64,000 nt of DNA, taken from Candidatus Poribacteria bacterium (lineage in GTDB: Bacteria > Poribacteria > WGA-4E > WGA-3G). Each line of letters opens with the position of its first letter. Within the stretch, counting starts at the first letter, position 1. Of this stretch, positions 252 to 51,257 are shown piece by piece. The notes under the pieces are model-generated. The model saw only the letters and a list, made by a program, of their open reading frames with translations. It ran no database searches and was not told where the DNA came from. The stretch is taken from NCBI GenBank assembly GCA_965205025.1, contig CBDBFU010000014.1, positions 32,001 through 96,000 of the forward strand. Reading direction: 5' to 3'. The position numbers and the translations under genes were made by a program.

Positions 252-915
252 AACTAATGGGATGATTCCTAAAATAGTTGGATTGATTAAGGAGTCAGAA
301 ATCTGTCTTATAAGGTAGATCGTGATGCTATCATTATGAGATAATATTTGTGTCTAATAAAATCAAATCGAAATGGTTTTTTATGAATGAACTTGCTTGA
401 TTTCCTTAGTTCCACTTTCTATGAGTTCAACTTTCTGTAGTGTGCTATTTTTGTGGGATTCCATCTATCTACATATTGACCATAGATCAAGTTATATTGC
501 TGAACCAAACCACAAAGTTTTCAGAATATGATCTTGAATTGCGAAGGTATCCTGCCGAGTGACCAGATTCCAGACTATACAGAGAATTTAATGAGAACAC
601 TCCCACAGTATCCGCGAAGTATAAAGTTGAACTAACAAGGGGTGCAGAACTGATTGAAGAATTCTTTATGGTTCTGGATGTGCCTGTAGTCAGTTTACAG
701 ATTGGGAAATGTACCAAGCGGTTGATTGACACATGAAAAGTGAATTAATTCCGTACTTAAGTAAACTTTAGAAAGAAGGGCTTGTTAGTATTATTGGTAT
801 GGTTGAAAATGAATTTGGAGGGAATGTTGCTGTTAGGATTATTTGATTGAATTGGTGCTGGAGGGTAATTCGGGAATAGAGTAAAAGTAGGAACGTATTA
901 TGGAGGTGAATAATT

Positions 916-1509
916 ATTGATACTTTAATTAAAAGTGTAAGAAGGTCATACCGTAGTTCGCTTTCAAAACACAACTTAGAGGGTCGTAAGCATCGGGCAA
1001 TTAGGGAAGCGAAAATAATAAACGATCAGACAATAGAAATAAAAACATTCCAACTCCATAGATTTAGACGAACAAAGGTGTTTTTAGCTAGAGAGAAATT
1101 TGGTTTTGTATTCCTATTCTTTTTAACTGATATATTGTTACCAATCTTATTGTATGATAATTCGTGGTTAGTTTGGCTTTTGTTATTTTATTTGAATATT
1201 ATACTTTTCTGTTTAATATTTCACTTAAGACATTTCCGACAAACGGGTTTAATGACAGTAGGTGATGAATATATGTTAATTGTTGGATGGACTTTTGTCT
1301 ATGGGGGTGGTTTTACTTTAATATTATACTACCCAGTACCTTTAATTCGTGCTGAAATGGTGTTATTTACCCTTTGTTTGACAATAATAGGTGTTTTGTT
1401 AATTTGGTTTCAATGGATAGAACTAAATATCGCCAAAGGAAAAAGAAAAAATACAATGCCGCTTCCCCGTTTATATGAATTTTTATTTAATAAAAATAGC
1501 AAACCGTAA
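916..1509 (+). CDS. Multi-pass membrane protein of unknown function; start uncertain (ATT 916 or GTG 1078)
   Basis: About four hydrophobic segments. Frame is open from 910 to 1509. Strong SD GGAGGTG at 902-908 precedes in-frame ATT codons at 913 and 916. Confidence 0.55.
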   Translation: MDTLIKSVRRSYRSSLSKHNLEGRKHRAIREAKIINDQTIEIKTFQLHRFRRTKVFLAREKFGFVFLFFLTDILLPILLYDNSWLVWLLLFYLNIILFCLIFHLRHFRQTGLMTVGDEYMLIVGWTFVYGGGFTLILYYPVPLIRAEMVLFTLCLTIIGVLLIWFQWIELNIAKGKRKNTMPLPRLYEFLFNKNSKP

Positions 1510-1537
1510 CCAATGTCATGTATTTTGTGCAAAGGTT

Positions 1538-2050
1538 TGTACTGCCATCGGATATTTAGAACACAGTCTAAGATAAGTTTGTGATACAATTACAGTCTAA
1601 TTGAAAGGATTATCCGATGGCAAAACGTAGAAGATTTACACCAGAATTTAAAGTTGAAGTTGTTATTGAAGCACTTAATGCATAGAGTTTACAAGCAGAA
1701 CTTTGTCGACGACGTAACATTAGTCAAGTACAACTTTCAAAGTGGAAACGTCAACTCCTCGAAAATGCGACGACCCTTTTTGAAACTATTGACAATCAAT
1801 CTAACGATGCTATTGAGCGAATTGCGCACCTTGAACAAATTGTTGACAGGTTAACCCTGGAATTAGACATCCAAAAAAAGCATTGAATTTGTTGGATTAA
1901 AACCAACTATACAGGGAGAAACGATTACGGCATTACGCAAAGATTACAGCGTCCTCACTCAGCATTATGCTATTTGACCCCAATTGAATTTGAACAACAA
2001 TTCTTATCTTAACTTTTCTAATTTTTGGTCTAAAAACCGTTGGTACTTCA
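1538..2050 (+). mobile_element. Internally deleted IS3-family element (about 513 bp)
   Basis: Imperfect terminal IRs TGTACTGCCATCGGATATTTAGAACA and (reverse complement) TGAAGTACCAACGGTTTTTAGACCA with TG...CA ends. Contains an orfA remnant, an A7G slippery site, and only the OrfB C-terminus RPHSALCYLTPIEFEQQFLS*. Confidence 0.85.
1617..1886 (+). pseudogene. IS3 orfA (HTH transposase subunit) with premature TAG
   Basis: MAKRRRFTPEFKVEVVIEALNA*SLQAELCRRRNISQVQLSKWKRQLLE...LEQIVDRLTLELDIQKK. Confidence 0.85.
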
Positions 2051-2079
2051 ATACTAAATGCAAATACAAGGAAGACTTT

Positions 2080-2727
2080 ATGACATCAGAATATGAAATG
2101 CGATTTCCATTTACTACTCAGAAAGAGATTCTTGATTGGGAGGCATACTACATTAATGATCTTTCGGAAAAAAGTCAAAGCAGAGAACAAGCCGTCATAG
2201 ATCTCAAAAAAGAGGTAATAGGGCGCGTGAAACCTGATACACTAAAAGGTTATCTGTGTAAAACTGAATTGCTGCAGATGGCACAATGGAAATCTCATTA
2301 TACTCCAAGCAAGATAGATAAAAACCCAGCAGGACTTATAGAAGATGTAACCGGTGAAGCATTTAGTATTGATGACGATTGGGAGAAACTTCAAAAGTTA
2401 AGTAATGAACTAACAGGTGTAAGAGAGTCTGTTGCATCCGTGATCCTACATCTCTATGACCCGATGAAATATCCTATTCTTGATAAACACGCGCTTAATT
2501 CCATTGGAATCGACAACTCACAAGTTAACTACGATGAAACTTTATGGGGTGAATATATCAATCTGTGTCGTGTGGAAGCCGAACGTTATGACGTTTCGAT
2601 GCGAACACTTGATAGAGCATTATATAAATATTCACAGAGTGGAACAGTATCAGCACTTAAAATTATTTCTGATGAATCACTCATTCTTGAGCTTAAACGC
2701 CGAGGTAATAAGCTCAAGTCTCGGTAA
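2080..2727 (+). CDS. Helix-hairpin-helix (HhH-GPD/glycosylase-like fold) protein
   Basis: ELLQMAQWK, LTGVRESVASVILH, YPILDKHAL and MRTLDRALY motifs. ATG 2080 follows AAGGA; the ORF-track start at 1984 lies inside the IS. Confidence 0.6.
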   Translation: MTSEYEMRFPFTTQKEILDWEAYYINDLSEKSQSREQAVIDLKKEVIGRVKPDTLKGYLCKTELLQMAQWKSHYTPSKIDKNPAGLIEDVTGEAFSIDDDWEKLQKLSNELTGVRESVASVILHLYDPMKYPILDKHALNSIGIDNSQVNYDETLWGEYINLCRVEAERYDVSMRTLDRALYKYSQSGTVSALKIISDESLILELKRRGNKLKSR

Positions 2728-2787
2728 TGAAAATAGACGACTGTTAAGATCGTCAAGATCTGTAAACACGCGATGAAAGGGAAAGAA

Positions 2788-3672
2788 ATGCATTATAGAA
2801 CACTAACAGAATCAGATATAGACCATTTCATAAAGAAGGGTCATATTGTACTTAAAGAGTGCTTTTCAAGAGAATTGGCTGCAGAATGGCGTGAGTTTGC
2901 ATTCAAACGGCTTGGATACGATCCTGATGATCCGACAACTTGGGAAGAACCGCGTATCCATCTTCCATCAATGAATCGTATCCCAATCCGCGAAATTGCA
3001 CCAAGAGCATGGGATGCCATTTGCGATCTACTCGGTGGGGAAGATAGAATAGCGAATACAAAACCCACTTGGGGAGATGGTTTTATTATTAACTTCGCTT
3101 TAGGTGCTGATTCAGAATGGCAACCCCCTGAATCACTACTTTCTGGTTGGCATAAAGATGGAGATTTCTTCCGTCACTTTTTAGATAGTCCAGAACAGGG
3201 ATTACTCACAATTATCGTTTGGTCTGATATTGAACCGATGAGTGGCGGTACGTTTGTTGCTTGTGATTCCGTTCAGCATGTTGCCCAACATTTGCATTCG
3301 CATCCTGAAGGATTGTTACCTGGAGAAGGATTTGGTCAGTTGATAGGGAAGTGTAAGGATTTTGTAGAGATTACAGGTCAAGCGGGAGATGTTGTGCTTT
3401 TACATCCGTTTATATTACATTCTGCATCTCAAAATCCATCCGGACGTGCTCGTTTTATCACAAATCCACCTGTTTCGCTAAAAGAACCGATGAATTTCAA
3501 TCGTGCTAATCCTGATGATTTTTCACCAGTAGAATTGGGAGTTTTACATGGGTTAGGAAAAGAAAGATTGGATTTTAAACTTACTGCCCCAAGAGAACGT
3601 TTAGTACCGGAACGTGTAAAACGTCAACAAAAGATGATGGAAGAACAGAAGAAAAGACTTGGAATGAATTAA
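2788..3672 (+). CDS. Phytanoyl-CoA dioxygenase (PhyH) family Fe(II)/2OG dioxygenase
   Basis: LT..DIDHFIKKGHIV N-terminus, WHKD (HxD) and GDVVLLHPFILHSA motifs. Confidence 0.85.
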   Translation: MHYRTLTESDIDHFIKKGHIVLKECFSRELAAEWREFAFKRLGYDPDDPTTWEEPRIHLPSMNRIPIREIAPRAWDAICDLLGGEDRIANTKPTWGDGFIINFALGADSEWQPPESLLSGWHKDGDFFRHFLDSPEQGLLTIIVWSDIEPMSGGTFVACDSVQHVAQHLHSHPEGLLPGEGFGQLIGKCKDFVEITGQAGDVVLLHPFILHSASQNPSGRARFITNPPVSLKEPMNFNRANPDDFSPVELGVLHGLGKERLDFKLTAPRERLVPERVKRQQKMMEEQKKRLGMN

Positions 3673-3682
3673 CTTTCAGAGG

Positions 3683-4759
3683 TTAGGGATTATTTTCAGT
3701 GTCTAATTGTCTTTTCTGCCATCCGTAATCAACATTACCCTCATAAAATTTATCTGGATGTTCAACTGCCCATATCTGCTTATGGATAATCCAGTTTTTT
3801 GGATCAAGTGCTAAAGCCTTCCGCCATTCAATAATTGCCTCAGACTTTTTCCCTATATCTAACAGAAGAATACCCAACTTAAACCGTGCATGTGCCTCAA
3901 CGATGTTCGGATTTTGAGATTTATCAACTGGCGTAATGTCTTGGAGGAGCGTTGTGTTATAGGTAGGATCATACAACCATTTTTCAAGCATCTCAACGGT
4001 TTGTTTATTGTCTACATTTATGTTGAAAGGTGGTTTAACTAAGCGTCCTACCTCATCAATCATAATGCCGTAGGGAATGGCTTTAAGATTGTAGATGTTT
4101 CCCATGACATTTTCTGCATCAACGAGGGTGACAAATTCTGCGGATGCCTTATCATGCCACGGTTTTACGACGGATGCTCCTTGTGCATCAATTGCAATAG
4201 AAACAAGGTTAAGTTTTTCGCTGTGTTTATCAAAGAATTTCTGCCATCCAGACAGTTGTCCTCGACATCCTCACCATGAACCCCATATATACAGAAGAGT
4301 TTTCTTTCCTTGGAAATCTTGTAGGCGTACAGGTATATCGTTGAGATCTGGTAATGTGATACTCGGTGCCAGTTGTCCGGGACGTATTATCTCTAACTTG
4401 TCTTTTGAATATCTATAAATCTCATATCCGAAAGGTTGCGTAATATTCTCAAGTTTCGTGTAATTAGTGCCATCAATATGAAACACATCAGTGTCCAATT
4501 GTAGCGGGACACACAACTCAGAATCACCTGTTCCACATACTGCCAGCATATTCTGCTCTTCCTGTGCTTTGACAGTCAATCCAAGTTTTTTACAGATGGG
4601 ATCTAATGGAACTAACCATTCACTCTCCTGCAAGATAGCAGGGGAAGGGAAGTCAATTATCTGATTATCAATTGAAACCGCAAACTTTCTTATAGGTTCA
4701 GCATTAGCTGCTATACCGATAGACATAATTAGTATAATCGGGAGAATCAACTTTATCAT
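3683..4759 (-). CDS. Exported peroxiredoxin-like/redoxin selenoprotein (UGA=Sec at 4271-4273): signal peptide, stalk-like domain, Trx fold with U-G-C, TPR
   Basis: ORFs 4271..4759 and 3683..4105 are in one frame, separated only by a TGA in APSITLPDL...KTLLYIWGSW*GCRGQL. SECIS-like hairpin CTGTC-TGGAT-GGCAG starts 15 nt after the UGA. Confidence 0.85.
4241..4255 (-). promoter_or_regulatory. Putative bacterial SECIS element
   Basis: mRNA reads UGA-GGAUGUCGAGGACAA-CUGUC UGGAU GGCAG: a 5-bp stem with one G-U pair and G in the second loop position. Confidence 0.65.
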
Positions 4760-39048: not shown

Positions 39049-39999
39049 GTGAAGATCAGAAGCATATATTGCTGTATTTTGTCAGTACTAATATTCACAA
39101 GTAGTAGTTTTGCTGTGTATGATGATATTGGTGTAGGAGCTCGTCCACTTGGACTTGGCGGAGCGTTTGTTGCCATAGCAAATGATAGCAATGCTGCTAA
39201 TTATAACGTTGCTGGCTTAGCTTATATTGACGGAATCCACATAGGTGCTACCTATGCACAACGTTTCAACGGACTCATAACATATAATACAATTAGTGGT
39301 ATTCTACCTCTTGGAAAAATTGGCTCGATAGGAGCAAATCTTGGTATACTGGGAGAAGAATCAGACCTATATTCCGAACAGGTAGTACGTTTCTCTTATG
39401 CAAATACTATTTTCAGGCAATTAGCATTAGGTATCAACCTTAAGATGTTGGGGATTTCCTTTGATGCAGAAAACGAATTTGTTGCTGAAAACTCATACTT
39501 TGTTCATACGTCAAGTTCAGCGTTTTCATTTGATGTAGGGTTGCTGACAAAACCATTTAATAGTTTGAATATCGGTGTATCTATTGAGAATCTACTTCCA
39601 GCTGATATGAGTATCTCAGATACACAAACAGATACTGTACCTCAGAATATAAGGATCGGTTTAGCCTACAACCTAAAATCAATTGCAGAGATGAGCGTAC
39701 AAGGAGAAGCAATTACAAACTTGTTAAAAGACACTTTAGGTACAATTGAAGTCACAACACGAAATGGTGAGATCAATACACATATCGGTGTGGAAATCAT
39801 GCTAAACAAGACAATTGGGGTTCGGGGTGGCTACGGTATAAAAAACGCAGGAAATACTGCTTCTACATTTAACTTGGGTGGAAGTGTAAAAATTCCTATA
39901 GGTGGAACAATACCCCAAATAGATTATGGTTTTCAATTATTAACTGGAGATTTCAACGACAACATAACACAACGATTCTCTATTAACTTATTATTCTAA
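39049..39999 (+). CDS. PorV/PorQ-like outer-membrane beta-barrel
   Basis: GVGARPLGLGGAFVAIANDSNAANYNVAGL N-terminal motif; C-terminal Phe. Confidence 0.8.
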   Translation: MKIRSIYCCILSVLIFTSSSFAVYDDIGVGARPLGLGGAFVAIANDSNAANYNVAGLAYIDGIHIGATYAQRFNGLITYNTISGILPLGKIGSIGANLGILGEESDLYSEQVVRFSYANTIFRQLALGINLKMLGISFDAENEFVAENSYFVHTSSSAFSFDVGLLTKPFNSLNIGVSIENLLPADMSISDTQTDTVPQNIRIGLAYNLKSIAEMSVQGEAITNLLKDTLGTIEVTTRNGEINTHIGVEIMLNKTIGVRGGYGIKNAGNTASTFNLGGSVKIPIGGTIPQIDYGFQLLTGDFNDNITQRFSINLLF

Positions 40000-40016
40000 T
40001 ATCAGGATAACATAAA

Positions 40017-41414
40017 ATGAAAAAAATAACTCAATATCTAATACTTCTCATATTTACATTTACTACATTAAGTGGATACAGTGCTGTAACATCAGTTGGA
40101 GAGATTAATGTTGAAGGTGAAACAAAAGGTATTGTTCCTGCAAGCTCTACCATTCCCCTTATCGTATCACTTTCTATTGACAGGTCATTAGCAGAACCGG
40201 GTGAAGAAATAAAGACTATTGAAATTACAATGCCTACCGGTTTTATCACCAAAATAGGGGATTTTAAATATATTACTCGTGATGGAGTAGAACTTATAGC
40301 AAGGGCAGTGATATCTGGTGGAAATATACTAAGAGTTGAGCTTACTAATCCAATAATAGATGACCAAAATGCTTTATACGAAATCGCATTTGACACTCAA
40401 ACACCAAATAATGTCTTTGAAGCAATTTTTAAAGTCTTATTACGTAATAGAGAAGATGTTCCTATTGGAGAATTTATCAGGGAAGGACAAGCAGATGGAA
40501 AATTAAATAATGATGATTTAAATTTACAGGTAATTCCTAATGTACCACCTGCACCTGTAACTGATTTCATAGTCGAAGCTGATACAACTGGAGAAAATGA
40601 CGTAACTCTAAGATGGCAAAAATCCATTGACCCTGATGTTAATGGGTATATAATCTATAGAAATAAAGAATTTACGATCAATGTTGAAAAACGGTCATCA
40701 ACTACCTATCGAGATGTAAATGTCTCTCCTGGAAACCACACATATCAGATTACTGCATATAAGACTATTTTCCTTCAATCCATCCGTTCGCCAATACAAA
40801 CTGTTGAGGTATTAGAAGATACAGCTGCTCCAGAACCACCCACTGCCCTTCGCGTTGTCACCTCAAATGAAGGAGTAGAGGTGTTTTGGATGGGAAGTGT
40901 TAGTCGTGACGTTTCCACTTATAAAGTATTGTTTAGTTCCACCGACTTTGAGAATCTAAAAACTTTCCCCGATGGTGAAATATCTGCAGAAAAACGTGCC
41001 AACGAATCCCCTGAATATAGATATATTGATACACGTCTATTGGAAATTGGTAGTTTCACTTATGCCGTTGTTGCCATTGACGAAGCAGGTAATGAATCTT
41101 CTCCTATAAAAAAGAGATATCGTGTTTTTGATAAACCTTATCCAAATCCATTTACCCCTCTCTCAAATGATCCAGATTTCAACACTGTTATCTTTCCTGC
41201 CAGAGTCGTGGAGGATGCCGATGGAGAGTTTAGTGTTCTTCTTTTTAATTTGAATGGTGTACTAATTAGAACATTAAATGCCCAAATTGGGGAAACTGAA
41301 TTAAAATGGGATGGTAAGAATGAAAATGGGGAAATCGTGGAAAGCGGTATCTACTTATACCAATTACAAGTTGGTGATAACTATAAAACTGGAACCATCA
41401 TATTAGCAAAATAG
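40017..41414 (+). CDS. Secreted FN3-repeat protein with T9SS-CTD/FlgD-Ig-like C-terminal domain
   Basis: Signal peptide; FN3 motifs (VTLRW, YAVVAIDEAGNES); PYPNPFTP...WDGKNENGEIVESGIYLY tail. Confidence 0.8.
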   Translation: MKKITQYLILLIFTFTTLSGYSAVTSVGEINVEGETKGIVPASSTIPLIVSLSIDRSLAEPGEEIKTIEITMPTGFITKIGDFKYITRDGVELIARAVISGGNILRVELTNPIIDDQNALYEIAFDTQTPNNVFEAIFKVLLRNREDVPIGEFIREGQADGKLNNDDLNLQVIPNVPPAPVTDFIVEADTTGENDVTLRWQKSIDPDVNGYIIYRNKEFTINVEKRSSTTYRDVNVSPGNHTYQITAYKTIFLQSIRSPIQTVEVLEDTAAPEPPTALRVVTSNEGVEVFWMGSVSRDVSTYKVLFSSTDFENLKTFPDGEISAEKRANESPEYRYIDTRLLEIGSFTYAVVAIDEAGNESSPIKKRYRVFDKPYPNPFTPLSNDPDFNTVIFPARVVEDADGEFSVLLFNLNGVLIRTLNAQIGETELKWDGKNENGEIVESGIYLYQLQVGDNYKTGTIILAK

Positions 41415-41640: not shown

Positions 41641-42663
41641 ATGAACAGAATAAAAACATCCCACAATAAATTATCTTATTGCTTAATTGCGATAATTTCT
41701 ACTGCTATTATTGCCTTTCCTGTAACAGCAGAATGGACTATAGTCCAAGAAAATGATCCAGCTATTCGCGATTATATGGCTATAACATTTACAGATGGTA
41801 AGACCGGATGGGTTGCTGGGGCAGATGTTCTTGAAGATTTTGAAAACCCTGGATTTATCGGTTATTCCTTTAACGGTGGTAAGTCTTGGCATAAATCCGA
41901 AATTAAAATTCCAGCAGAACTAACAGGTATCTACTTTCTGGATGCAGACCACGGTTGGGCAATCGGTCAAAAAGGTCTTATAACCAATACAACAAACGGA
42001 AAAGATTGGGATATACAAATTAGCAAAGTCGACACAACTTTGAGAAGTATCTATTTCGTCAACAAAGATGTAGGGTATGCTGTTGGAGAAAATCAAACAA
42101 TTCTATCATCAAAAAATGGTGGACGAACATGGAAAGTTCTTGACGGTGGAATTGTTGGGAACGTTGGTGATGACGAAACAAGTATGTTCAATGCAATGCA
42201 ATTTCTTGATGAATCAACTGGTTGGATTGCCGGTATACGAGTTTTCCCTGCTAAGAAGCAACAAAAAACTATTATACAAAAGACTATTGATGGTGGACAA
42301 ACTTGGACTCTTCAAGAAACCGGAAAAGAAGACATTATCGAAGACATCTTCTTCATTGATGAATCAAATGGATGGGCTGTCGGAGAAAATGGCTTGATTC
42401 TTCACACAAATAACAGTGGTAAAACATGGACAGACCAGATGAGTGGTACTGAGGAGACGATACGTAGTGTAGCTTTTGCAGATAGTAAAGTTGGATGGGC
42501 TGTCGGTGGAGACTTTGGTGTCGGTGTAATACTAAGTACTACTGATGGAGGACAATCATGGACTGTAGAAACACAGAAACAAAAAATGGTCAAAGTCCAT
42601 GTATTAGATAAAAAGAATGCATGGTTAGCTGGAGCGAGTGGTCTTATATTAAAATCAAAATAG
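41641..42663 (+). CDS. Ycf48-like/BNR-repeat beta-propeller, secreted
   Basis: Repeated GWAVG and TxDGGxTW Asp-box motifs; signal peptide. Confidence 0.85.
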   Translation: MNRIKTSHNKLSYCLIAIISTAIIAFPVTAEWTIVQENDPAIRDYMAITFTDGKTGWVAGADVLEDFENPGFIGYSFNGGKSWHKSEIKIPAELTGIYFLDADHGWAIGQKGLITNTTNGKDWDIQISKVDTTLRSIYFVNKDVGYAVGENQTILSSKNGGRTWKVLDGGIVGNVGDDETSMFNAMQFLDESTGWIAGIRVFPAKKQQKTIIQKTIDGGQTWTLQETGKEDIIEDIFFIDESNGWAVGENGLILHTNNSGKTWTDQMSGTEETIRSVAFADSKVGWAVGGDFGVGVILSTTDGGQSWTVETQKQKMVKVHVLDKKNAWLAGASGLILKSK

Positions 42664-42761: not shown

Positions 42762-43934
42762 TTGGGTAGTCCTACTTTCGCCAAGCGTATGAGTCGCTTG
42801 GGAACTGAATCCGCGTTTGAGGTACTCGCCAAAGCAAAAAGCTTAGAAGCCCAGGGCAAAGACATTATTCATTTAGAGATAGGTCAGCCCGATTTTTCGA
42901 CACCTATGAATGTCTGTGAGGCAGCATTCAAGGCGATGAAAGAAGGTCATACGGGTTATTGTCCATCGGCAGGACTACCTGAATTCCGAGAAGTTGCTGC
43001 ACACCACATATCTGAAACGCGCGGTATTGAAATACATCCAGATGAAGTTACCGTAACACCCGGTGCTAAACCCATCATCTTTTTTACAATCTTAGCATTA
43101 GTTGATGATGGAGATGAAGTTATATACCCAGAACCGGGCTTCCCTGTATATGAATCTGTTATTGATTTTATTGGTGGTAAACCAGTACCACTTCCCTTAA
43201 GAGAAGAAGTCGACTTCCGTTTTAAAATTGATGATTTAGTTGATTCTATTACTGAAAATACAAAACTGCTTATACTTAACTCTCCCCAAAATCCTACCGG
43301 AGGAACTCTAACTGAATCAGACCTTGCAGTAATAGCAGAGCTGGTAGAAAAACATAAGTTTTATGTTCTAACTGATGAAGTGTATTCAAGACTCCTCTAC
43401 GAAGGAACTCACCATAGTATACTCAGTATACCTGGAATGAAAGAACATACGATTCTAATTGAAGGTCATTCAAAAACATATGCTATGACAGGTTGGCGTC
43501 TTGGATATGGTATAGCACCAAAAGAAATCGCAGATAAAATCACTCAATTGACAATAAACTCAAATTCATGCACTGCAACATTCACACAAATTGCTGGAAT
43601 AGAAGCACTCACCGGACCACAAACTTTCGTTTCAGAAATGGTAGCAGAATTTCAAGTACGACGTGATGTAATCGTTGATGGGTTAAATGCAATTAAAGGC
43701 ATGAGTTGTGTGAAGCCATTTGGTTCTTTCTATGTATTTCCAAATGTGACTGAGCTGCCCCTTTCTTGTGAAGATCTGGCAGATTATCTAATGGAGGAAG
43801 TTGGAGTTGCTCTATTACCTGGGACAGCATTTGGTAAATATGGTGATGGATATCTACGTCTTTCGTATGCGAATTCATTGGATAACATTAATGATGCATT
43901 ACGAAGAATGGAATCTGCTATTTCAAAGTTATAG
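42762..43934 (+). CDS. PLP-dependent class I/II aminotransferase (aspartate aminotransferase-like)
   Basis: GQPDF, NSPQNPTG, DEVY, SKTYAMTGWRLGY; GGAGG SD before TTG. Confidence 0.93.
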   Translation: MGSPTFAKRMSRLGTESAFEVLAKAKSLEAQGKDIIHLEIGQPDFSTPMNVCEAAFKAMKEGHTGYCPSAGLPEFREVAAHHISETRGIEIHPDEVTVTPGAKPIIFFTILALVDDGDEVIYPEPGFPVYESVIDFIGGKPVPLPLREEVDFRFKIDDLVDSITENTKLLILNSPQNPTGGTLTESDLAVIAELVEKHKFYVLTDEVYSRLLYEGTHHSILSIPGMKEHTILIEGHSKTYAMTGWRLGYGIAPKEIADKITQLTINSNSCTATFTQIAGIEALTGPQTFVSEMVAEFQVRRDVIVDGLNAIKGMSCVKPFGSFYVFPNVTELPLSCEDLADYLMEEVGVALLPGTAFGKYGDGYLRLSYANSLDNINDALRRMESAISKL

Positions 43935-43953: not shown

Positions 43954-44871
43954 ATGTCTCGAAGAATAACTGCTCGGATCCCTGCGAGTACAACAAATTT
44001 GGGTCCAGGATTTGATGTATTAGGTCTTGCATTAAAACTATATAGTACTATTACATTAGAAATAACTGAGAATAACACTGAAGTGATTGTAACAGGTGTA
44101 GACGCGGAGAAAATACCCAGTTCTACTGAAAATGTTGCATTTCAAGCAGTAAAATCCATATATTTACGAAGTGGGACACCACTACCAAATGGACTCAGAT
44201 TAAGCATTTCCAATGGAATTCCTGCAATACGAGGTTTAGGTGGTAGTGGGACTGCTATTCTTGGTGGAATGTTGACTGCAAATGTGTTGTGTGGAAACCC
44301 ATTCACAAATACAGATATTCTTGATTTTGCATCGGCTATAGAAGGTCATCCTGATAATGTGGCTGCCTCACTATACGGTGGTTTAGTCATTTCAATGCAA
44401 GAACATGAACACATACACACAATCAAATTGCATTGTGATCCATCACTATACATAGTATTCGCCATCCCAGAATTTACCTTATCTACTAAAAAAGCAAGAG
44501 ATATTCTGCCAAAAACTGTAGATTTCACTGACGCGATTTATAACATCAGTAGAAGTTCTATGCTGATTGCAAGTATAGCAACTGGAAAACTGGAAAATTT
44601 ATCTTTTGCCATGGCAGATAGACTCCACCAACCTTATCGAAGTTCATTAATTCCTGGTTTTGACAATGTTGTTGATGCTGCAATTTCTGCAGGAGCATTA
44701 AGTATAGCATTAAGCGGTGCCGGTCCAACCATAGCAGCATACTGTTTGGAAAATATAGATGACATTGGAATTGAAATGCATAAGGCATTTAAACATCATA
44801 ATATCAATTGTGAGATAAAAACACTTACACCTGATTTAGATGGAGCCTTAGTTTCTATTAAAGATGACTAA
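43954..44871 (+). CDS. thrB: Homoserine kinase
   Basis: PASTTNLGPGFDVLG, RGLGGSG, EGHPDNVA, DRLHQPYR, LSGAGPT. Confidence 0.95.
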   Translation: MSRRITARIPASTTNLGPGFDVLGLALKLYSTITLEITENNTEVIVTGVDAEKIPSSTENVAFQAVKSIYLRSGTPLPNGLRLSISNGIPAIRGLGGSGTAILGGMLTANVLCGNPFTNTDILDFASAIEGHPDNVAASLYGGLVISMQEHEHIHTIKLHCDPSLYIVFAIPEFTLSTKKARDILPKTVDFTDAIYNISRSSMLIASIATGKLENLSFAMADRLHQPYRSSLIPGFDNVVDAAISAGALSIALSGAGPTIAAYCLENIDDIGIEMHKAFKHHNINCEIKTLTPDLDGALVSIKDD

Positions 44872-44933
44872 ATTTCATTATGGGAAGTTGTCAATAGTGA
44901 TATATTTGACAGTGATATTTAGGGTTGCTTTTT

Positions 44934-47669
44934 ATGAATATTTATGAAGAGAGTATAGCTTTTCTGATAAACCAATACGATACTGATCTTGAATACGGTT
45001 TAAGTCAATCCGCTGTAAAAGATCTTCAAGAACGTTATGGTTTAAATAAAGTAAATACTAAGACTGGGACAGCAGAATTTACTTCTCTTATACATCAGAT
45101 ATTAAACTGGAGAATACTCCTATTGGCACTCACAACTGCTGTGTTTGCTTATACAAATGATATAATCAATACAGCATTAATAGGTGTGATTTTCCTTTTT
45201 ACACTGATTGGAGGAATTATACTTGTACTAAGTTTTCGCTATTCCCAACAGCGTAGAGTGAACAAATTTAAGATAAGCGTCTCAGTAATTCGTGAAGGTA
45301 AACAAGAGAAATGTGATCCGTCAGATATTGTACCAGGTGACCTAATTATACTAAAACCTGGGGACTATATACCAGCTGATGCCCGTATTGTTGAGGCTGA
45401 TGGACTAACAGTTATTGAGTCAGCATTATTTGGAAGCAGCGGTTCTGCAGCAAAAACAAGTATAGAATTAACTGAACCAGGTCTACCTCCAGAAAAACAA
45501 ATTAATATGGTGTTTGGAGGTACTTATGTAGATGCAGGAATCGGACAAGCGATTGTAGTACGAACTGGAAACCAATTGGTGATGTTTCAAGATCAAGGTA
45601 AAGCACGTTCGCTGCCCAATGAGATGACAGTTGCAGAAAATCAGCTAAAGTTTTATGTAGATGTCCTAAAGATTTCAGGTTTAGTTGTTGGTGGCATTGC
45701 TGTTGCCATTCTATGGTGGGGAAAATCTCAACAAAACACACCTAATTGGGTTGAATTAGTCCAATTTGGTTTAGTGTTTGCTATCGCTGCTACCCCATTC
45801 AATTTACTAATACTATTACATTCATATCTCAATCAGAAGGCATCAAAGTTGGTTAATTTTGGTATAGTATTACGAAATCATCATTTCCTTGAAAAATTGA
45901 ACCGTCTTACGGCATTATGTACAGATGAAAGAGGTATAACAAGTACACGATCTCTAACCATTTCCAATATCTTCGTTGATGAACAAATTGTTAACCGAAC
46001 ACAATGGGATAATTGGGTTTCATCGCTTGAGAATCAAACTCCAGAAGAGAAAAGTGAAAGGATTAACTCTATTCCACCCGGATATCAAATACCTCAAGGA
46101 GCCCCAGGATTAGTTTTAACTGCTGGTCTTGGAACCAGCGGGGAACGTTTCTATGACAGATCTGATTTAGATCATGCACACCAACAGGTTATTCAAGAGA
46201 CTATGGATAAACTTGGATTCCAGTTGAACAATCTAAAGACAAATATGCAACTTGTCGCTGAATATCCTTGGACCCCTAACTTTGGATATGAATTACATGT
46301 GTTTGAATCAGGAAATGAAGAATATCTTAACATTATCTTTGGAAATGCAAGGAATGTTCTTGAGGCATGTGATTCAATACTTATAAATGGGGAAATGAGT
46401 CAATTCAATTATGATCAATACGAAATGTGCAGTGAGATACTTAATTATCTACAAAATTCAAGAGACTCTGTTTATGGAGTAGCATCTTTACATTCTGAAA
46501 CAAGTCTATCACCACAAGAAGTCCAGGGAATATCTACTTTTTTAGGTTTTATCAGTTTCTCTGTTACTGATAATGTTGAAACAAAAGAAGTGGTTAAGTC
46601 ATTCCTTGATACAGGACTGAAAGTTATTCTAATTAGTGATAGTGATGAACAATCTACGACAGACATAGCAAAAGAACTCGGTCTCGTCCATACTCGAAAC
46701 GCGGTTGCAACAAGACAAGAGCTTATGCAACTTACTACACAAGAATTTGATAGAGATGTACCAAATTGGAATGCATATTCTCAACCGACAGACGAACAAC
46801 GGAGAAATGTAGTCTTAAGTCTAAAACGACATAATCATACAGTAGGATATTTAGGACAAAATGCAAACGATCAACGGGCAATGGTTTCTGCTGATCTTGC
46901 TTTTGCTGATGTAAGAAATGCAAGCCATTTTGCTCAAGATCATGCCGACTGCTTAATAATAGAGAAAGGTTTTAAGGCAATTAAGGATTCACTATTATTG
47001 GCACGGAAGGCGTATCACAACCTCTCAGGATCACTCCGATGGTGTTTTTCATGTACTTTCGCACAATTTTTTACTGCTATCTTTGGTTTAATACTATATG
47101 CAGGATTCAAAATTGAGCTGCCTTTTACCCTATCACAAATTGTGTGGGTTCAGTTCTTAACAACTATGGTTCCTGTTATTGGGTTAGGATATGAGAAAGT
47201 CGCAATGAATGAAAAACAAAACCAACCTGGTAGGGCAACACAACTATTTCCAAATATGTCAGTCCTGGATATCGTATGTAGAAGTCTTGTCATCAGTCTA
47301 ATGACAATAATACATTTCTTATTAATGACAACTTCTGTTTTTGAATCTACTCTTGAAGAGGCACGGACGGCTGCCTGTACCACACTAATTCTTACTCAGA
47401 TTATAGTATATTTTCAATGTACACGTTACCCATGGGAATCGCTGTTTAAAAGGATGTTCTCTAATGTACGCTTCTTTATAATATCAATAATCGTAATTGG
47501 AATTCAGACAGGAGCAATCTATCTTGAACCGGTTAATGATGTATTCCAGTTTACAGCACTTGAGAATGAATGGATAGTGTCAGCATTATGTAGTCTAATT
47601 TTATTGTTGCTACCATTGAATTTAGCAATCAATCCTCGTAAAGATAGATTCTATACCCAGAATCCGTAA
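44934..47669 (+). CDS. P2-type ATPase homolog with degenerate catalytic motifs
   Basis: Overall P-type layout (YGLN, IVPGD, IPADAR, NMVFGGT, QIVWV). DKTGT reads DERGI, TGES reads FGSS, TGD reads SDS, GDGxND reads GQNAND. Confidence 0.8.
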   Translation: MNIYEESIAFLINQYDTDLEYGLSQSAVKDLQERYGLNKVNTKTGTAEFTSLIHQILNWRILLLALTTAVFAYTNDIINTALIGVIFLFTLIGGIILVLSFRYSQQRRVNKFKISVSVIREGKQEKCDPSDIVPGDLIILKPGDYIPADARIVEADGLTVIESALFGSSGSAAKTSIELTEPGLPPEKQINMVFGGTYVDAGIGQAIVVRTGNQLVMFQDQGKARSLPNEMTVAENQLKFYVDVLKISGLVVGGIAVAILWWGKSQQNTPNWVELVQFGLVFAIAATPFNLLILLHSYLNQKASKLVNFGIVLRNHHFLEKLNRLTALCTDERGITSTRSLTISNIFVDEQIVNRTQWDNWVSSLENQTPEEKSERINSIPPGYQIPQGAPGLVLTAGLGTSGERFYDRSDLDHAHQQVIQETMDKLGFQLNNLKTNMQLVAEYPWTPNFGYELHVFESGNEEYLNIIFGNARNVLEACDSILINGEMSQFNYDQYEMCSEILNYLQNSRDSVYGVASLHSETSLSPQEVQGISTFLGFISFSVTDNVETKEVVKSFLDTGLKVILISDSDEQSTTDIAKELGLVHTRNAVATRQELMQLTTQEFDRDVPNWNAYSQPTDEQRRNVVLSLKRHNHTVGYLGQNANDQRAMVSADLAFADVRNASHFAQDHADCLIIEKGFKAIKDSLLLARKAYHNLSGSLRWCFSCTFAQFFTAIFGLILYAGFKIELPFTLSQIVWVQFLTTMVPVIGLGYEKVAMNEKQNQPGRATQLFPNMSVLDIVCRSLVISLMTIIHFLLMTTSVFESTLEEARTAACTTLILTQIIVYFQCTRYPWESLFKRMFSNVRFFIISIIVIGIQTGAIYLEPVNDVFQFTALENEWIVSALCSLILLLLPLNLAINPRKDRFYTQNP

Positions 47670-49603
47670 GTGGGTATACCTGCTATTATACCAAGAATAG
47701 TCCATAAACTTCCTACTGTAAATTCACCAAGAATAAGTCCTAAAAAGAAGGGGGCAATTTTACGATATTTTACAGGTCCTCCGTATTTTAATATTATCCA
47801 TTTAATTAACCAACTCATGAAAAGGCAGCTCCATGTTACATGCATTCCCCAACTTGTTGATATCGCAAATCCTGCTGGATGAAATGGCCACCAAACAAAT
47901 CGCATTCGGAACATCATTAATATAGATGTTAGTATAAAGCCTATACCCATAAATATGCTTTCCGGTATTTCTGGGTCTGTGGGGGATTGAAGCCAACCAG
48001 CTAAACGGCGATAAGGTTCAATTCCAAATGCACTCAAAGAAGGCCAATACGCACGAACTTCCATACCTAAACTATGTCCCCTATCAATTAGTGCCCAAAA
48101 ACCTGCTAACGACCCTAAAACACTTGCCAATACCACCGCTACTATTATCCGACGCATACTCATCTTAGTACGCTCCATTATCTTAAAACCTTCTAATTGA
48201 TGAGGCATCGGATGACTTCGATATGCCCGGTTGATAAACCAGAACATTGAGAACATAATTAGATTATCTCTACCTAATCGACGGGTTCCTACTACACGCG
48301 TTAATATCTCATCAGGACCCGAATAGTGTAAATCATGAACAGGAGTTCCCAATTCAGCACGCATACGGGTAATCGCTATAGAGATCATATAATATATTAC
48401 GAAAAACCCAAGCATCACACCTAAATTTGCACCACCGTAATAACAGAAGAGAACTAAAAATGTCATTACAATAATGAATCCAATAATAGCTGTCCTATAT
48501 GATATTGCTTCTTCTGAATCTTCAGGTGATTTACCTCTTCTAACCAAAATATGTCCTACATTGAGTAAATGACGCCGACTTGCCCAAAGTGCCAATACAC
48601 ATAATGCCAAATATCCACCAGATGCTTGCTCATTCATATATGGGAAACGTGGCATGCTACGAAAACCAAACATAGCACCCCCCACCCGCATAAATCGCCA
48701 GAACCAAAAGAAAAACCAACATGAGAATGAAAGATCAAGTGGAATGAAAAAACCTAATCCAATAGCAAACGGATAGAGAGAAATGGGTATGTTCCCCATT
48801 GCATTCCATGGACTGTCGGTAAAGAGTGGATAGCTACGGATACGAGTACGTAACTCAGGCAATACTGGGTAAAGAAAATTCATTCCATTCCACAATGCTA
48901 AGCCACCGGCAACGCCAAATCCTAACCACATAATCTTATTCTGAAAAAAGTGGTTGTTTCTGGTTTCTGTTAGATGAAGTGGAAGATGGATGATCGGATA
49001 ACTTAATTTCTCATATTCAATCCACTGTTTCCTAATAATTATATTAATGCATAGCATTCCTAAAACCAGCATACTGATAAAGGTCGTCCACCATAGAACA
49101 GGAGTTGCCCAACCCAGTAGTGATTCAAATGTATAAAGTGGTTGATCTCCTTCATAATACCCTTGTAATAAACGAGGACTATCAATGGTAAGCCATTCCG
49201 GGAGAAATGGAACAAATAGTTGATGCCATTCATTTTCTGGAGATGCAAAACGGAATGCATGACCTAACATAGGAACTAATATTTCAAGCATATCATGTCC
49301 TGTTATCCCTGAGGCAATTGACAACATCAGATAGACAATTACAAGTTCGCTTTGTATTAATGCCATTTTTGGTATAAAACGACGCAGTAACTGATTGAAA
49401 CCAACAAGTAAGAATAGACTAAAGATAACATTAAAAAAGAGAGATATGGTAACGGGGTGACCAGAATAACGAATTACTTCCATTTCAATCACCCAATAGC
49501 AATTGATAGGAATAAGGATAGTAGAAATTAGAATAGATTTAAGGGTTACACCGTGGGTAGGAATTTCGTGAGAACTTAGCAGTGTGGATTTTCGGTCTTC
49601 CAT
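47651..49603 (-). CDS. DUF6785/DUF6784-type (OPT-like) polytopic membrane protein
   Basis: Many TM helices; RKQWIEYEKLSYPI, RMRAELG, WWPFHPAGF, YGG...PFFLGLILGE motifs. Confidence 0.75.
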   Translation of the reverse strand: MEDRKSTLLSSHEIPTHGVTLKSILISTILIPINCYWVIEMEVIRYSGHPVTISLFFNVIFSLFLLVGFNQLLRRFIPKMALIQSELVIVYLMLSIASGITGHDMLEILVPMLGHAFRFASPENEWHQLFVPFLPEWLTIDSPRLLQGYYEGDQPLYTFESLLGWATPVLWWTTFISMLVLGMLCINIIIRKQWIEYEKLSYPIIHLPLHLTETRNNHFFQNKIMWLGFGVAGGLALWNGMNFLYPVLPELRTRIRSYPLFTDSPWNAMGNIPISLYPFAIGLGFFIPLDLSFSCWFFFWFWRFMRVGGAMFGFRSMPRFPYMNEQASGGYLALCVLALWASRRHLLNVGHILVRRGKSPEDSEEAISYRTAIIGFIIVMTFLVLFCYYGGANLGVMLGFFVIYYMISIAITRMRAELGTPVHDLHYSGPDEILTRVVGTRRLGRDNLIMFSMFWFINRAYRSHPMPHQLEGFKIMERTKMSMRRIIVAVVLASVLGSLAGFWALIDRGHSLGMEVRAYWPSLSAFGIEPYRRLAGWLQSPTDPEIPESIFMGIGFILTSILMMFRMRFVWWPFHPAGFAISTSWGMHVTWSCLFMSWLIKWIILKYGGPVKYRKIAPFFLGLILGEFTVGSLWTILGIIAGIPTYGFWV

Positions 49604-50823: not shown

Positions 50824-50891
50824 ATCTTAAGTAAAAACATGTTGTTAACAGTTTCCATCTTTTATTGATCTTAATAACTTATGTGATTACA

Positions 50892-51257
50892 ATGGATATA
50901 ATATTACATTGGATTATACATCTACTTACATTGAGCGTTTCGGTCTTGATAGTCACCTATATTCTTCCAAGTATCAGTGTTAAGGGTTTTGGTACAGCAG
51001 TTGTAGTTGCACTGATCTATGGTCTTTTTAAGTTCTTTCTAACTGGTATCCTAACAATTTTAACATTACCTTTGATAGTTATTACTTTAGGTCTGTTTTA
51101 CTTTGTAATCAATGCCTTCTTGCTATGGATCACAAGTAAAGTAGTAGAAGGATTTGAAGTAAAAGGATGTGTTACCACGGTCATTGCAGCACTTTTGATT
51201 TCTGTGATAGAAATCTTAATTCATCATCTCTTTGTAGTTGTAAATGTTAGTATGTAA
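50892..51257 (+). CDS. YvlD/DUF360 4-TM membrane protein ('phage holin family' label)
   Basis: LTILTLPLIVITLGLFYFVINAFLL, GFEVKG. Confidence 0.85.
   Translation: MDIILHWIIHLLTLSVSVLIVTYILPSISVKGFGTAVVVALIYGLFKFFLTGILTILTLPLIVITLGLFYFVINAFLLWITSKVVEGFEVKGCVTTVIAALLISVIEILIHHLFVVVNVSM

Follow-up and report, generated by a model that had tools for sequence, protein, structure and literature searches.

Phosphorylation chemistry defines the P-type ATPases, whose signature motifs are treated as near-invariant. The question raised here is what a full-length homologue of the P2 type may do when these motifs are altered. The window analysed is the whole stretch of 64,000 nucleotides from a Candidatus Poribacteria bacterium (assembly GCA_965205025.1, contig CBDBFU010000014.1, positions 32,001 to 96,000); Poribacteria are prominent symbionts of sponges. 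The coding sequence in question, at 44934..47669 on the plus strand, specifies a pseudo-P2-type ATPase of 911 amino acids (P0001), recognized with Pfam and NCBIfam models, an alignment to the Ca2+-ATPase LMCA1, an AlphaFold2 (AF2) model and Foldseek comparisons. Judged from its sequence, the gene is quite probably an ancient pseudo-ATPase maintained by selection, encoding a membrane protein that does not pump but has a conformational, ligand-binding or scaffold role.

Reading frame and domain content

The open reading frame (ORF) extends from the ATG at 44934 to the TAA at 47667–47669 without any internal stop, in agreement with the uninterrupted frame of about 910 residues given in the first-pass annotation, and the A domain and the N- and C-terminal domains of the P2 architecture were found by Pfam. 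An in-frame TTG at 44925 would add three residues, yet the ATG at 44934 is favoured as the start because orthologues exactly 911 amino acids long align over residues 1–911. The Pfam matches of P0001 were E1-E2_ATPase (PF00122, E 4e-24), Cation_ATPase_C (PF00689, 1e-20) and Cation_ATPase_N (PF00690, 1.5e-7), all above their cut-offs. No match was given by Hydrolase/HAD (PF00702) or the Cation_ATPase N-domain (PF13246) in the scan of P0001, and the gene was neither detected in a PF00702 scan of the whole host genome.

The generic P-type ATPase model TIGR01494 was the only NCBIfam model passed by P0001 (70.1 bits against a cut-off of 62.3). The best model, the equivalog TIGR01522 of PMR1-type Ca2+-ATPases, reached 198.7 bits against a cut-off of 798.3 and TIGR01116 119.9 against 703.4, all equivalog models remaining far under their cut-offs. 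In an exhaustive search of 1.84 billion representatives, 21,482 matched P0001 at E ≤ 1e-3; on these matches the homology to P-type ATPases is overwhelming and the gene is no chance ORF. By homology and predicted fold P0001 belongs to the P-type ATPase superfamily, having the actuator (A), phosphorylation (P), nucleotide-binding (N) and membrane domains.

Searches for additional content gave little. Pfam scans of the poorly alignable N/P stretch (residues 340–560 and 541–689, E ≤ 10) returned chance-level matches only, with E at least 0.057. A GxGxxG-like string, GLGTSG (residues 398–403), matched no Rossmann or kinase family and nothing was made of it. Fused forms of 1596–4555 amino acids were not found at E ≤ 1e-60, which is weak evidence, and the ESM Atlas, consulted without structural search, contained ordinary P-type ATPase clusters only.

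Altered signature motifs

The motif positions of P0001 were obtained from a residue-by-residue phmmer alignment to the Listeria Ca2+-ATPase LMCA1 (6zhf, E 1.3e-49), and the losses in KGAPE, DPPR and the transmembrane segments M5 and M6 were read from an alignment with 13 canonical representatives. The equivalent residues of SERCA are presumably E183, E309, D351, K352, K515, T625, K684, D703, D707, N768, E771, N796 and D800; their correspondence to P0001 rests on the alignments.

All five substitutions reported in the first-pass annotation were found opposite the canonical motif in the LMCA1 alignment. The A-domain loop reads FGSS (residues 166–169, 45429..45440) for TGES, also in the alignment with the canonical representatives. 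In M4, PFNL (residues 288–291, 45795..45806) stands for PEGL (PEAL in LMCA1), so that the ion-ligand Glu is gone and a family-specific Asp or Asn follows at the +1 position. The phosphorylation segment is CTDERGITS (residues 329–337, 45918..45944) for the CTDKTGTLT of LMCA1; the Asp codon placed earlier at 45924 was confirmed as GAT at 45924–45926, corresponding to Asp331. LISDS (residues 566–570, 46629..46643) replaces MITGD, and GQNAND (residues 641–646, 46854..46871) replaces GDGxND (GDGVND in LMCA1), with the first Asp changed to Gln and the last Asp kept.

Four further segments, all on the plus strand like those above, add to these. The N domain has FGNAR (residues 469–473, 46338..46352) for KGAPE, the ATP-binding Lys being gone, and the P domain DNVE (residues 546–549, 46569..46580) for DPPR. 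M5 has SCTFAQ (residues 706–711, 47049..47066) for SCNxGE, with the ion-ligand Asn and Glu gone, and M6 has WVQFLTT (residues 738–744, 47145..47165) for WxNLxTD (NLVTD to QFLTT), with the ion-ligand Asn and Asp gone. The cation-ligand positions of P0001 are consequently F289 in M4, T708 and Q711 in M5, and Q740 and T744 in M6. After M7 the family-specific RYPWE (residues 831–835, 47424..47438, plus strand) stands where canonical pumps have a CRSE-like sequence; R831 and E835 are invariant in the alignment.

None of the enzymatic signatures DKTGT, TGES, TGD/GDGxND, or the KGAPE Lys with the DPPR Arg, is present in P0001, and it has neither the equivalog score nor the M4, M5 and M6 carboxylate/amide ligands of a P2A Ca2+-ATPase. 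The A-domain structural motifs GDxxPAD.R, DES and NMxFxGT are kept. P0001 would in this light be a relative of P2A-type pumps by descent that falls outside the class by its enzymatic features.

Motif state among homologues

A word-indexed search produced 487 matches, and from the best 120 of these the 118 sequences longer than 850 amino acids, including the query, were aligned; they are 41–91% identical to P0001. The canonical form of any of the five motifs TGES, PEGL, DKTGT, TGD and GDGxND was found in 0/118 of these homologues. The nucleophile position, the DKTGT Asp, is Asn in 71, Asp in 43, Ser in three and His in one, and the following Lys is changed to Glu in 116/118. The TGES Thr is Phe (F166) in every sequence and the TGES Glu position is Thr, Ser or Ala. 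At the KGAPE Lys position Phe occurs in 111 and Val in seven sequences, at the TGD Gly position Glu in 92 and Asp in 22, and at the first GDGxND Asp Gln in 94 and Glu in 19; Ser or Thr is retained at the TGD Thr position in 105/118.

Also the membrane ligands are changed throughout the alignment. The M4 Glu position is H, Y, Q, G, F, S, N or P and in no sequence Glu, and the +1 position is Asp in 86 and Asn in 32. The M5 Asn position is Thr in 113/118 and the M5 Glu position Leu in 74 and Gln in 44, while the M6 Asn is Gln in all 118 and the M6 Asp is Thr in 109 and Ser in nine. Neither Glu nor Asp was found at the M4, M5 and M6 carboxylate positions in any of the 118 homologues.

Several replacement or kept residues are near-invariant (F166, E332, F469, R623, Q740, T744 and D646), and the fixation of the substituted residues implies that a new constraint has arisen and that drift is not the cause. 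Motifs invariant within the family itself include RYPWE (after M7), AYSQPT..QRRN (P domain), IPQGA..L..TAGLGT (N domain) and LLPLNLAI (C-terminus). The level of conservation among the 118 sequences is similar for every domain.

Selection on the gene

The ratio of nonsynonymous to synonymous substitution rates (dN/dS, omega) was estimated for the gene against three orthologues of 88–91% identity, giving values of 0.083, 0.113 and 0.088. Among the neighbouring genes the values were 0.10–0.18 for thrB and 0.04–0.07 for an aminotransferase gene, uppS and a gene for a protein with DUF6785, the last being strongly constrained (0.03–0.065). The pseudo-ATPase gene is under purifying selection comparable to that on neighbouring housekeeping genes.

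The constraint is unevenly distributed along the protein. The remodelled phosphorylation segment P1 is the tightest region (omega 0–0.015), followed by the A domain (0.04–0.07), P2 (0.04–0.10) and the N domain (0.06–0.085). The cytoplasmic headpiece as a whole has an omega of 0.06–0.10 and the membrane domain 0.11–0.125, with M1–M2 as the loosest region (0.24–0.31). Catalytic residues that are gone together with purifying selection constitute the operational definition of a pseudoenzyme, and both are seen in this gene.

Predicted fold

An AF2 model made with an alignment of 146 sequences including canonical pumps had a predicted local distance difference test (pLDDT) score of 91.4, a predicted template modelling (pTM) score of 0.87 and the full complement of secondary structure. 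The top PDB matches of this model in Foldseek were full-length Na,K-ATPase, SPCA, SERCA and LMCA1 (probability 1.00, E down to 3e-47), with template modelling (TM) scores of up to 0.74 for E1-type states and about 0.57–0.62 for most E2-type states. The model shows that the sequence of P0001 is compatible with the complete P2 pump fold, and the proposed comparison of a predicted structure with SERCA and LMCA1 gave both among the matches. The E1-like pose of the model may be AlphaFold bias only.

Distribution and origin in Poribacteria

In a six-frame search of 176 Poribacteria genomes, a match to the pseudo-ATPase at E ≤ 1e-20 was found in 174 genomes, covering 133/133 high-quality genomes and 31/31 genera; the two genomes with no match are 81% and 79% complete. 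Many of the six-frame matches show one stop inside, which was read as the terminal stop of the orthologue itself because the alignment reaches query residue 911. As the E-value alone does not separate dead from canonical copies, the motifs were inspected in ten divergent genomes. Nine of these (G007, G008, G017, G005, G001, G062, G059, G016 and G012, families f4–f10) had degenerate best matches, each altered differently, with 23–31% identity in BLAST alignments. The exception is G003 (f11), which carries a canonical pump and in which a dead copy was not found. With no canonical motif in the alignment, dN/dS of 0.083–0.113 and nine degenerate divergent copies, the earlier view of a retained pseudo-ATPase rather than a decaying gene held, and the proposed check of orthologues gave the same outcome for close and distant copies.

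The copy of G001, a basal Poribacteria lineage, is only partly degenerate (L096; G001:C23, ORF 1417–4299, plus strand; CSNKKGIMT, DHPR, ITDEC and GDSAND). In the tree it branches between the dead clade and the canonical pumps, which makes it a possible evolutionary intermediate.

A scan of species-representative genomes, in which RYPWE was used as a scan pattern, provided a set of the 80 best loci, mostly titled Candidatus or uncultured Poribacteria and a few only "uncultured bacterium". An intact ORF of more than 500 amino acids with the PADA motif is present in 78 of them. The exhaustive search found four close clusters (1177–527 bits). The next clusters, at 24–28% identity (P0124–P0127, P0132 and P0162), are all degenerate, and P0132 belongs to Candidatus Poribacteria according to NCBI. 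Beyond them come canonical pumps, 132/148 new representatives carrying DKTGT and GDGxND, and the identity of P0001 to any canonical representative is 20–27%.

A quick maximum likelihood tree of 61 rows (LG+G4, with Shimodaira–Hasegawa-like approximate likelihood ratio test, SH-aLRT, support only) placed 18 degenerate sequences on one side of a branch with SH-aLRT 99. Provisionally, the tree is consistent with a single ancient loss of the catalytic motifs early in Poribacteria. The searches also contained sporadic P2-type ATPases with one or a few altered motifs (P0160, P0167, P0182, P0260 and P0264; for example CTNKTGT/ITND/GDNVRE, TGSH/GDSVSD and DKTGN/GGTVDD), and partial degeneration may have arisen independently elsewhere.

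Genomic context

The host genome is 5.66 Mb in size and 95% complete. A PF00122 scan found only two P-type ATPases in it, the pseudo-ATPase and one CopA-like P1B pump, and a whole-genome PF00702 scan added no further one. The CopA-like pump (L001; G000:C13, ORF 472–2697, minus strand, 741 amino acids) is on another contig and has an N-terminal CxxC metal-binding domain, the CPC motif and intact DKTGT, TGES, TGD and GDGIND. The suggestion that a canonical P2 paralogue might serve as partner was thereby rejected: since the only other P-type ATPase is CopA-like, no canonical P2 paralogue is there to partner or back up the pseudo-ATPase.

The pseudo-ATPase gene closes an array of four co-directional genes on the plus strand. 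The array begins with a Ycf48-like BNR beta-propeller gene (41641..42663) whose product has an N-terminal hydrophobic segment, and which is found in the flanks of 77/80 loci; Ycf48 belongs to a photosystem II assembly factor family. It continues with a class I/II (aspartate-type) aminotransferase gene (42762..43934; 78/80 loci), with aspartate aminotransferases as best matches, and with thrB, encoding homoserine kinase (43954..44871; TIGR00191, 280.7 bits against a cut-off of 168; flanks of 78/80 loci), which ends 62 nucleotides upstream of the pseudo-ATPase gene. A simple scan, itself weak evidence, placed all promoter-like sites before the first gene of the array and detected no plus-strand terminator-like sites between its genes. 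Co-transcription of the pseudo-ATPase with housekeeping amino-acid genes is likely. The sequencing data listed comprised two DNA-type sources from one study and no RNA source. On the minus strand, the convergent gene at 47651..49603 encodes a polytopic membrane protein of 650 amino acids with DUF6785 and DUF6784 (Pfam E 1.7e-166 and 1.3e-34), for which no NCBIfam model was found. It overlaps the 3' end of the pseudo-ATPase gene by 19 nucleotides and is present in the flanks of 73/80 loci.

In close relatives the synteny around the locus extends over about 15 kb. Among the nine divergent lineages with a degenerate copy, thrB is directly upstream of the pseudo-ATPase gene in seven and the full four-gene array is present in six. 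In L107 the array is cut by a contig end, L109 has none of the array genes, and in L110 the Ycf48-like gene is directly followed by the pseudo-ATPase gene. DUF6785 occurs near the pseudo-ATPase gene (within about 8 kb) in one of the nine lineages only; L112 has two DUF6785 homologues upstream of the same array.

Interpretation and alternative explanations

The protein would be a pseudoenzyme derived from a bacterial P2A-type, Ca2+-pump-like ATPase that has kept the whole A/P/N and ten-segment membrane architecture and lost the residues for ATP binding, for formation and removal of the aspartyl phosphate, for Mg2+ coordination and for cation ligation. Judged from these motifs, the E1/E2 phosphorylation cycle and cation pumping are most likely impossible. 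The loss would have happened once, early in Poribacteria, after which the gene appears to have become near-universal and single-copy in the phylum. Constraint is highest in the P and A domains, once the seat of catalysis, and the substituted residues are fixed; from this the cytoplasmic headpiece probably still works, as a conformational module that binds a ligand or a partner and is coupled to the membrane domain. The protein would serve as a sensor, a regulator or a scaffold, perhaps one that contains a gated neutral pathway, and would not be a vestige on a passive anchor. Speculatively, the Glu that invariably replaces the DKTGT Lys could combine with the new TGD-loop acid and the conserved Arg residues into a network of internal salt bridges or an anion pocket.

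A more specific picture can be put forward tentatively, although on balance it is doubtful. According to it, this would be the first bacterial pseudo-P-type ATPase family, a phylum core gene built on a P2 chassis and having an ATP-independent role. The remodelled P site, with the invariant Glu for Lys, the Arg at K684 and new TGD-loop acids, would be salt-bridged or bind a small anionic ligand and so set the neutralised membrane pathway, making the protein a ligand-gated transducer or channel.

Several observations weigh against the non-pumping interpretation. Inactivity is predicted from the motifs, and the last GDGxND Asp (D646) is retained in 117/118 homologues, an Arg is present at the position of the P-domain Lys (presumably K684) in 118/118, and the Asp at the nucleophile position is kept in P0001 and 42 others; together the retained residues could still permit some phosphate or metal chemistry. 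When AF2 was run with a family-only alignment of 40 sequences, pLDDT was 64 and fell under 50 in the P domain and in part of the N domain; this model was left out of the fold comparison, and the confident model leans on the canonical pumps that were aligned with the family. Long-branch attraction could have inflated the signal for a single origin, the branches being long and compositionally odd and the tree search quick. Also the conservation of gene order with thrB and the aminotransferase gene may be phylogenetic inertia.

One alternative is a pump that still runs on ATP but uses unconventional catalytic residues, at least in the subclade that keeps the Asp and to which P0001 belongs. Asp331 here, Asp in 43/118 sequences, D646, S/T568 and R623 at phosphate or Mg ligand positions, and the passed TIGR01494 model would all fit such a pump. 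It is nevertheless very improbable: the DKTGT Lys and Thr, the TGES Glu, the KGAPE Lys, the DPPR Arg, the TGD Gly-Asp and the first GDGxND Asp are all gone, equivalog scores such as that of TIGR01522 are far below their cut-offs, and orthologues at 41–49% identity, with Asn, Ser or His as the nucleophile residue in 75/118 sequences, show the same conservation. Since these 75 sequences are without the nucleophile Asp, a function common to the family needs no phosphorylation. Recent decay of the gene, or an assembly or sequencing artefact, can be given hardly any weight, as nothing beyond the altered motifs speaks for it: the ORF is intact here and in nearly all of the 80 loci, dN/dS is about 0.1, and the same substitutions recur in independent assemblies across the phylum.

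A passive, ATP-independent carrier or channel is unlikely, yet it accounts for a number of features. The neutralised site (T708, Q711, Q740, T743, T744 and the D/N at M4+1) would then conduct a neutral or other solute down its gradient, with the headpiece as a gate or a structural part. The M5–M6 core is among the most conserved segments (mean top-residue frequency 0.75), the neutralisations are conservative and not random (Glu to Gln or Leu, Asp to Thr, Asn to Gln), the D/N beside the lost M4 Glu is found in 118/118, and the structure of a palytoxin-converted Na,K-ATPase channel (9vj0) among the fold matches indicates that P-type folds can conduct. However, constraint is tighter on the headpiece than on the membrane part, which is unexpected for an accessory element, M1–M2 are the least constrained segments of all, and there is no candidate substrate. 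It is improbable, too, that the protein is a non-catalytic subunit, regulator or scaffold of another membrane protein, either the convergent DUF6785/DUF6784 protein or the single CopA-like pump. The frequent adjacency and the overlap of the DUF6785 gene, the two DUF6785 homologues in L112 and the presence of only one canonical P-type ATPase in the genome would agree with such a role. The adjacency in close relatives is, however, uninformative because of the conserved synteny there, and 8/9 divergent lineages with the pseudo-ATPase have no DUF6785 gene within about 8 kb of it. The two genes are convergent and not co-transcribed, and the CopA gene is on another contig.

Relation to known systems

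The P2A Ca2+-ATPases of the LMCA1 (PDB 6zhf and 9euq), PMR1 and SPCA type are the closest known relatives, LMCA1 being the best sequence match and TIGR01522 the best NCBIfam model. P0001 shares with them the length of about 900 amino acids, the N- and C-terminal Pfam domains, the predicted fold of ten transmembrane segments with A, P and N domains, and the A-domain structural motifs, but all catalytic, nucleotide-, Mg2+- and cation-binding signatures are replaced and identity is only 20–27%. Na,K-ATPase and SERCA have the same overall fold (Foldseek E 1e-42 to 3e-47; TM 0.67–0.74 for E1-type and 0.57–0.62 for most E2-type states), but identity to them is 15–19% and no catalytic or ion-site residues are in common.

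The nearest described analogue found is P4GC, the guanylate cyclases of alveolates and stramenopiles, whose P4-ATPase-like (flippase) module has in some lineages a substituted DKTGT Asp and A-domain Glu and for which possible ATPase loss was raised by the authors (PMC13466520). In both cases a degenerate P-type ATPase module is retained. The P4GC module is eukaryotic, P4-type, cyclase-fused and degenerate only in some lineages, whereas the pseudo-ATPase is bacterial, P2-derived, stand-alone and degenerate in every family member sampled across the phylum. In the full-text literature, with most subscription journals and supplements outside the scope, no description was found of a bacterial dead P-type ATPase family, of the Poribacteria protein or of DUF6785/DUF6784. 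The "FUPA" surveys of the Saier laboratory reportedly may list degenerate families.

What would be new is a stand-alone, phylum-wide pseudo-P-type ATPase, a finding that is robust and unexpected for the field. A motif-less P2 pump is near-universal in the phylum, and the pump scaffold would have a selectable function independent of ATP hydrolysis. The family offers a natural system for studying the capabilities of the A/P/N headpiece and the membrane core once the phosphoenzyme cycle is gone. Annotation is affected as well: homologues are named "cation-transporting P-type ATPase" or "Ca2+-transporting ATPase" in databases, and these names probably mis-state the inferred ion-transport capacity of Poribacteria, the host genome having no canonical P2 pump.

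Other genes of the locus

The adjacent thrB and aminotransferase genes were considered as a PduX/CobD-like cobalamin pair and rejected as such, because thrB passes the homoserine kinase equivalog and the aminotransferase best matches aspartate aminotransferases. Upstream of the array, at 39049–41414 on the plus strand, the window contains a gene for a PorV/PorQ-family outer-membrane protein (NF033709, 91.8 bits against a cut-off of 90), followed by one for a 465-amino-acid protein with a weak FlgD-Ig-like C-terminal domain, which suggests that the two are related to type IX secretion. At 50865–51257 on the plus strand, a membrane protein of 130 amino acids with four transmembrane segments, assigned to "phage holin superfamily IV" (PF04020), is encoded; it is present in 3/80 loci, its neighbours being conserved.

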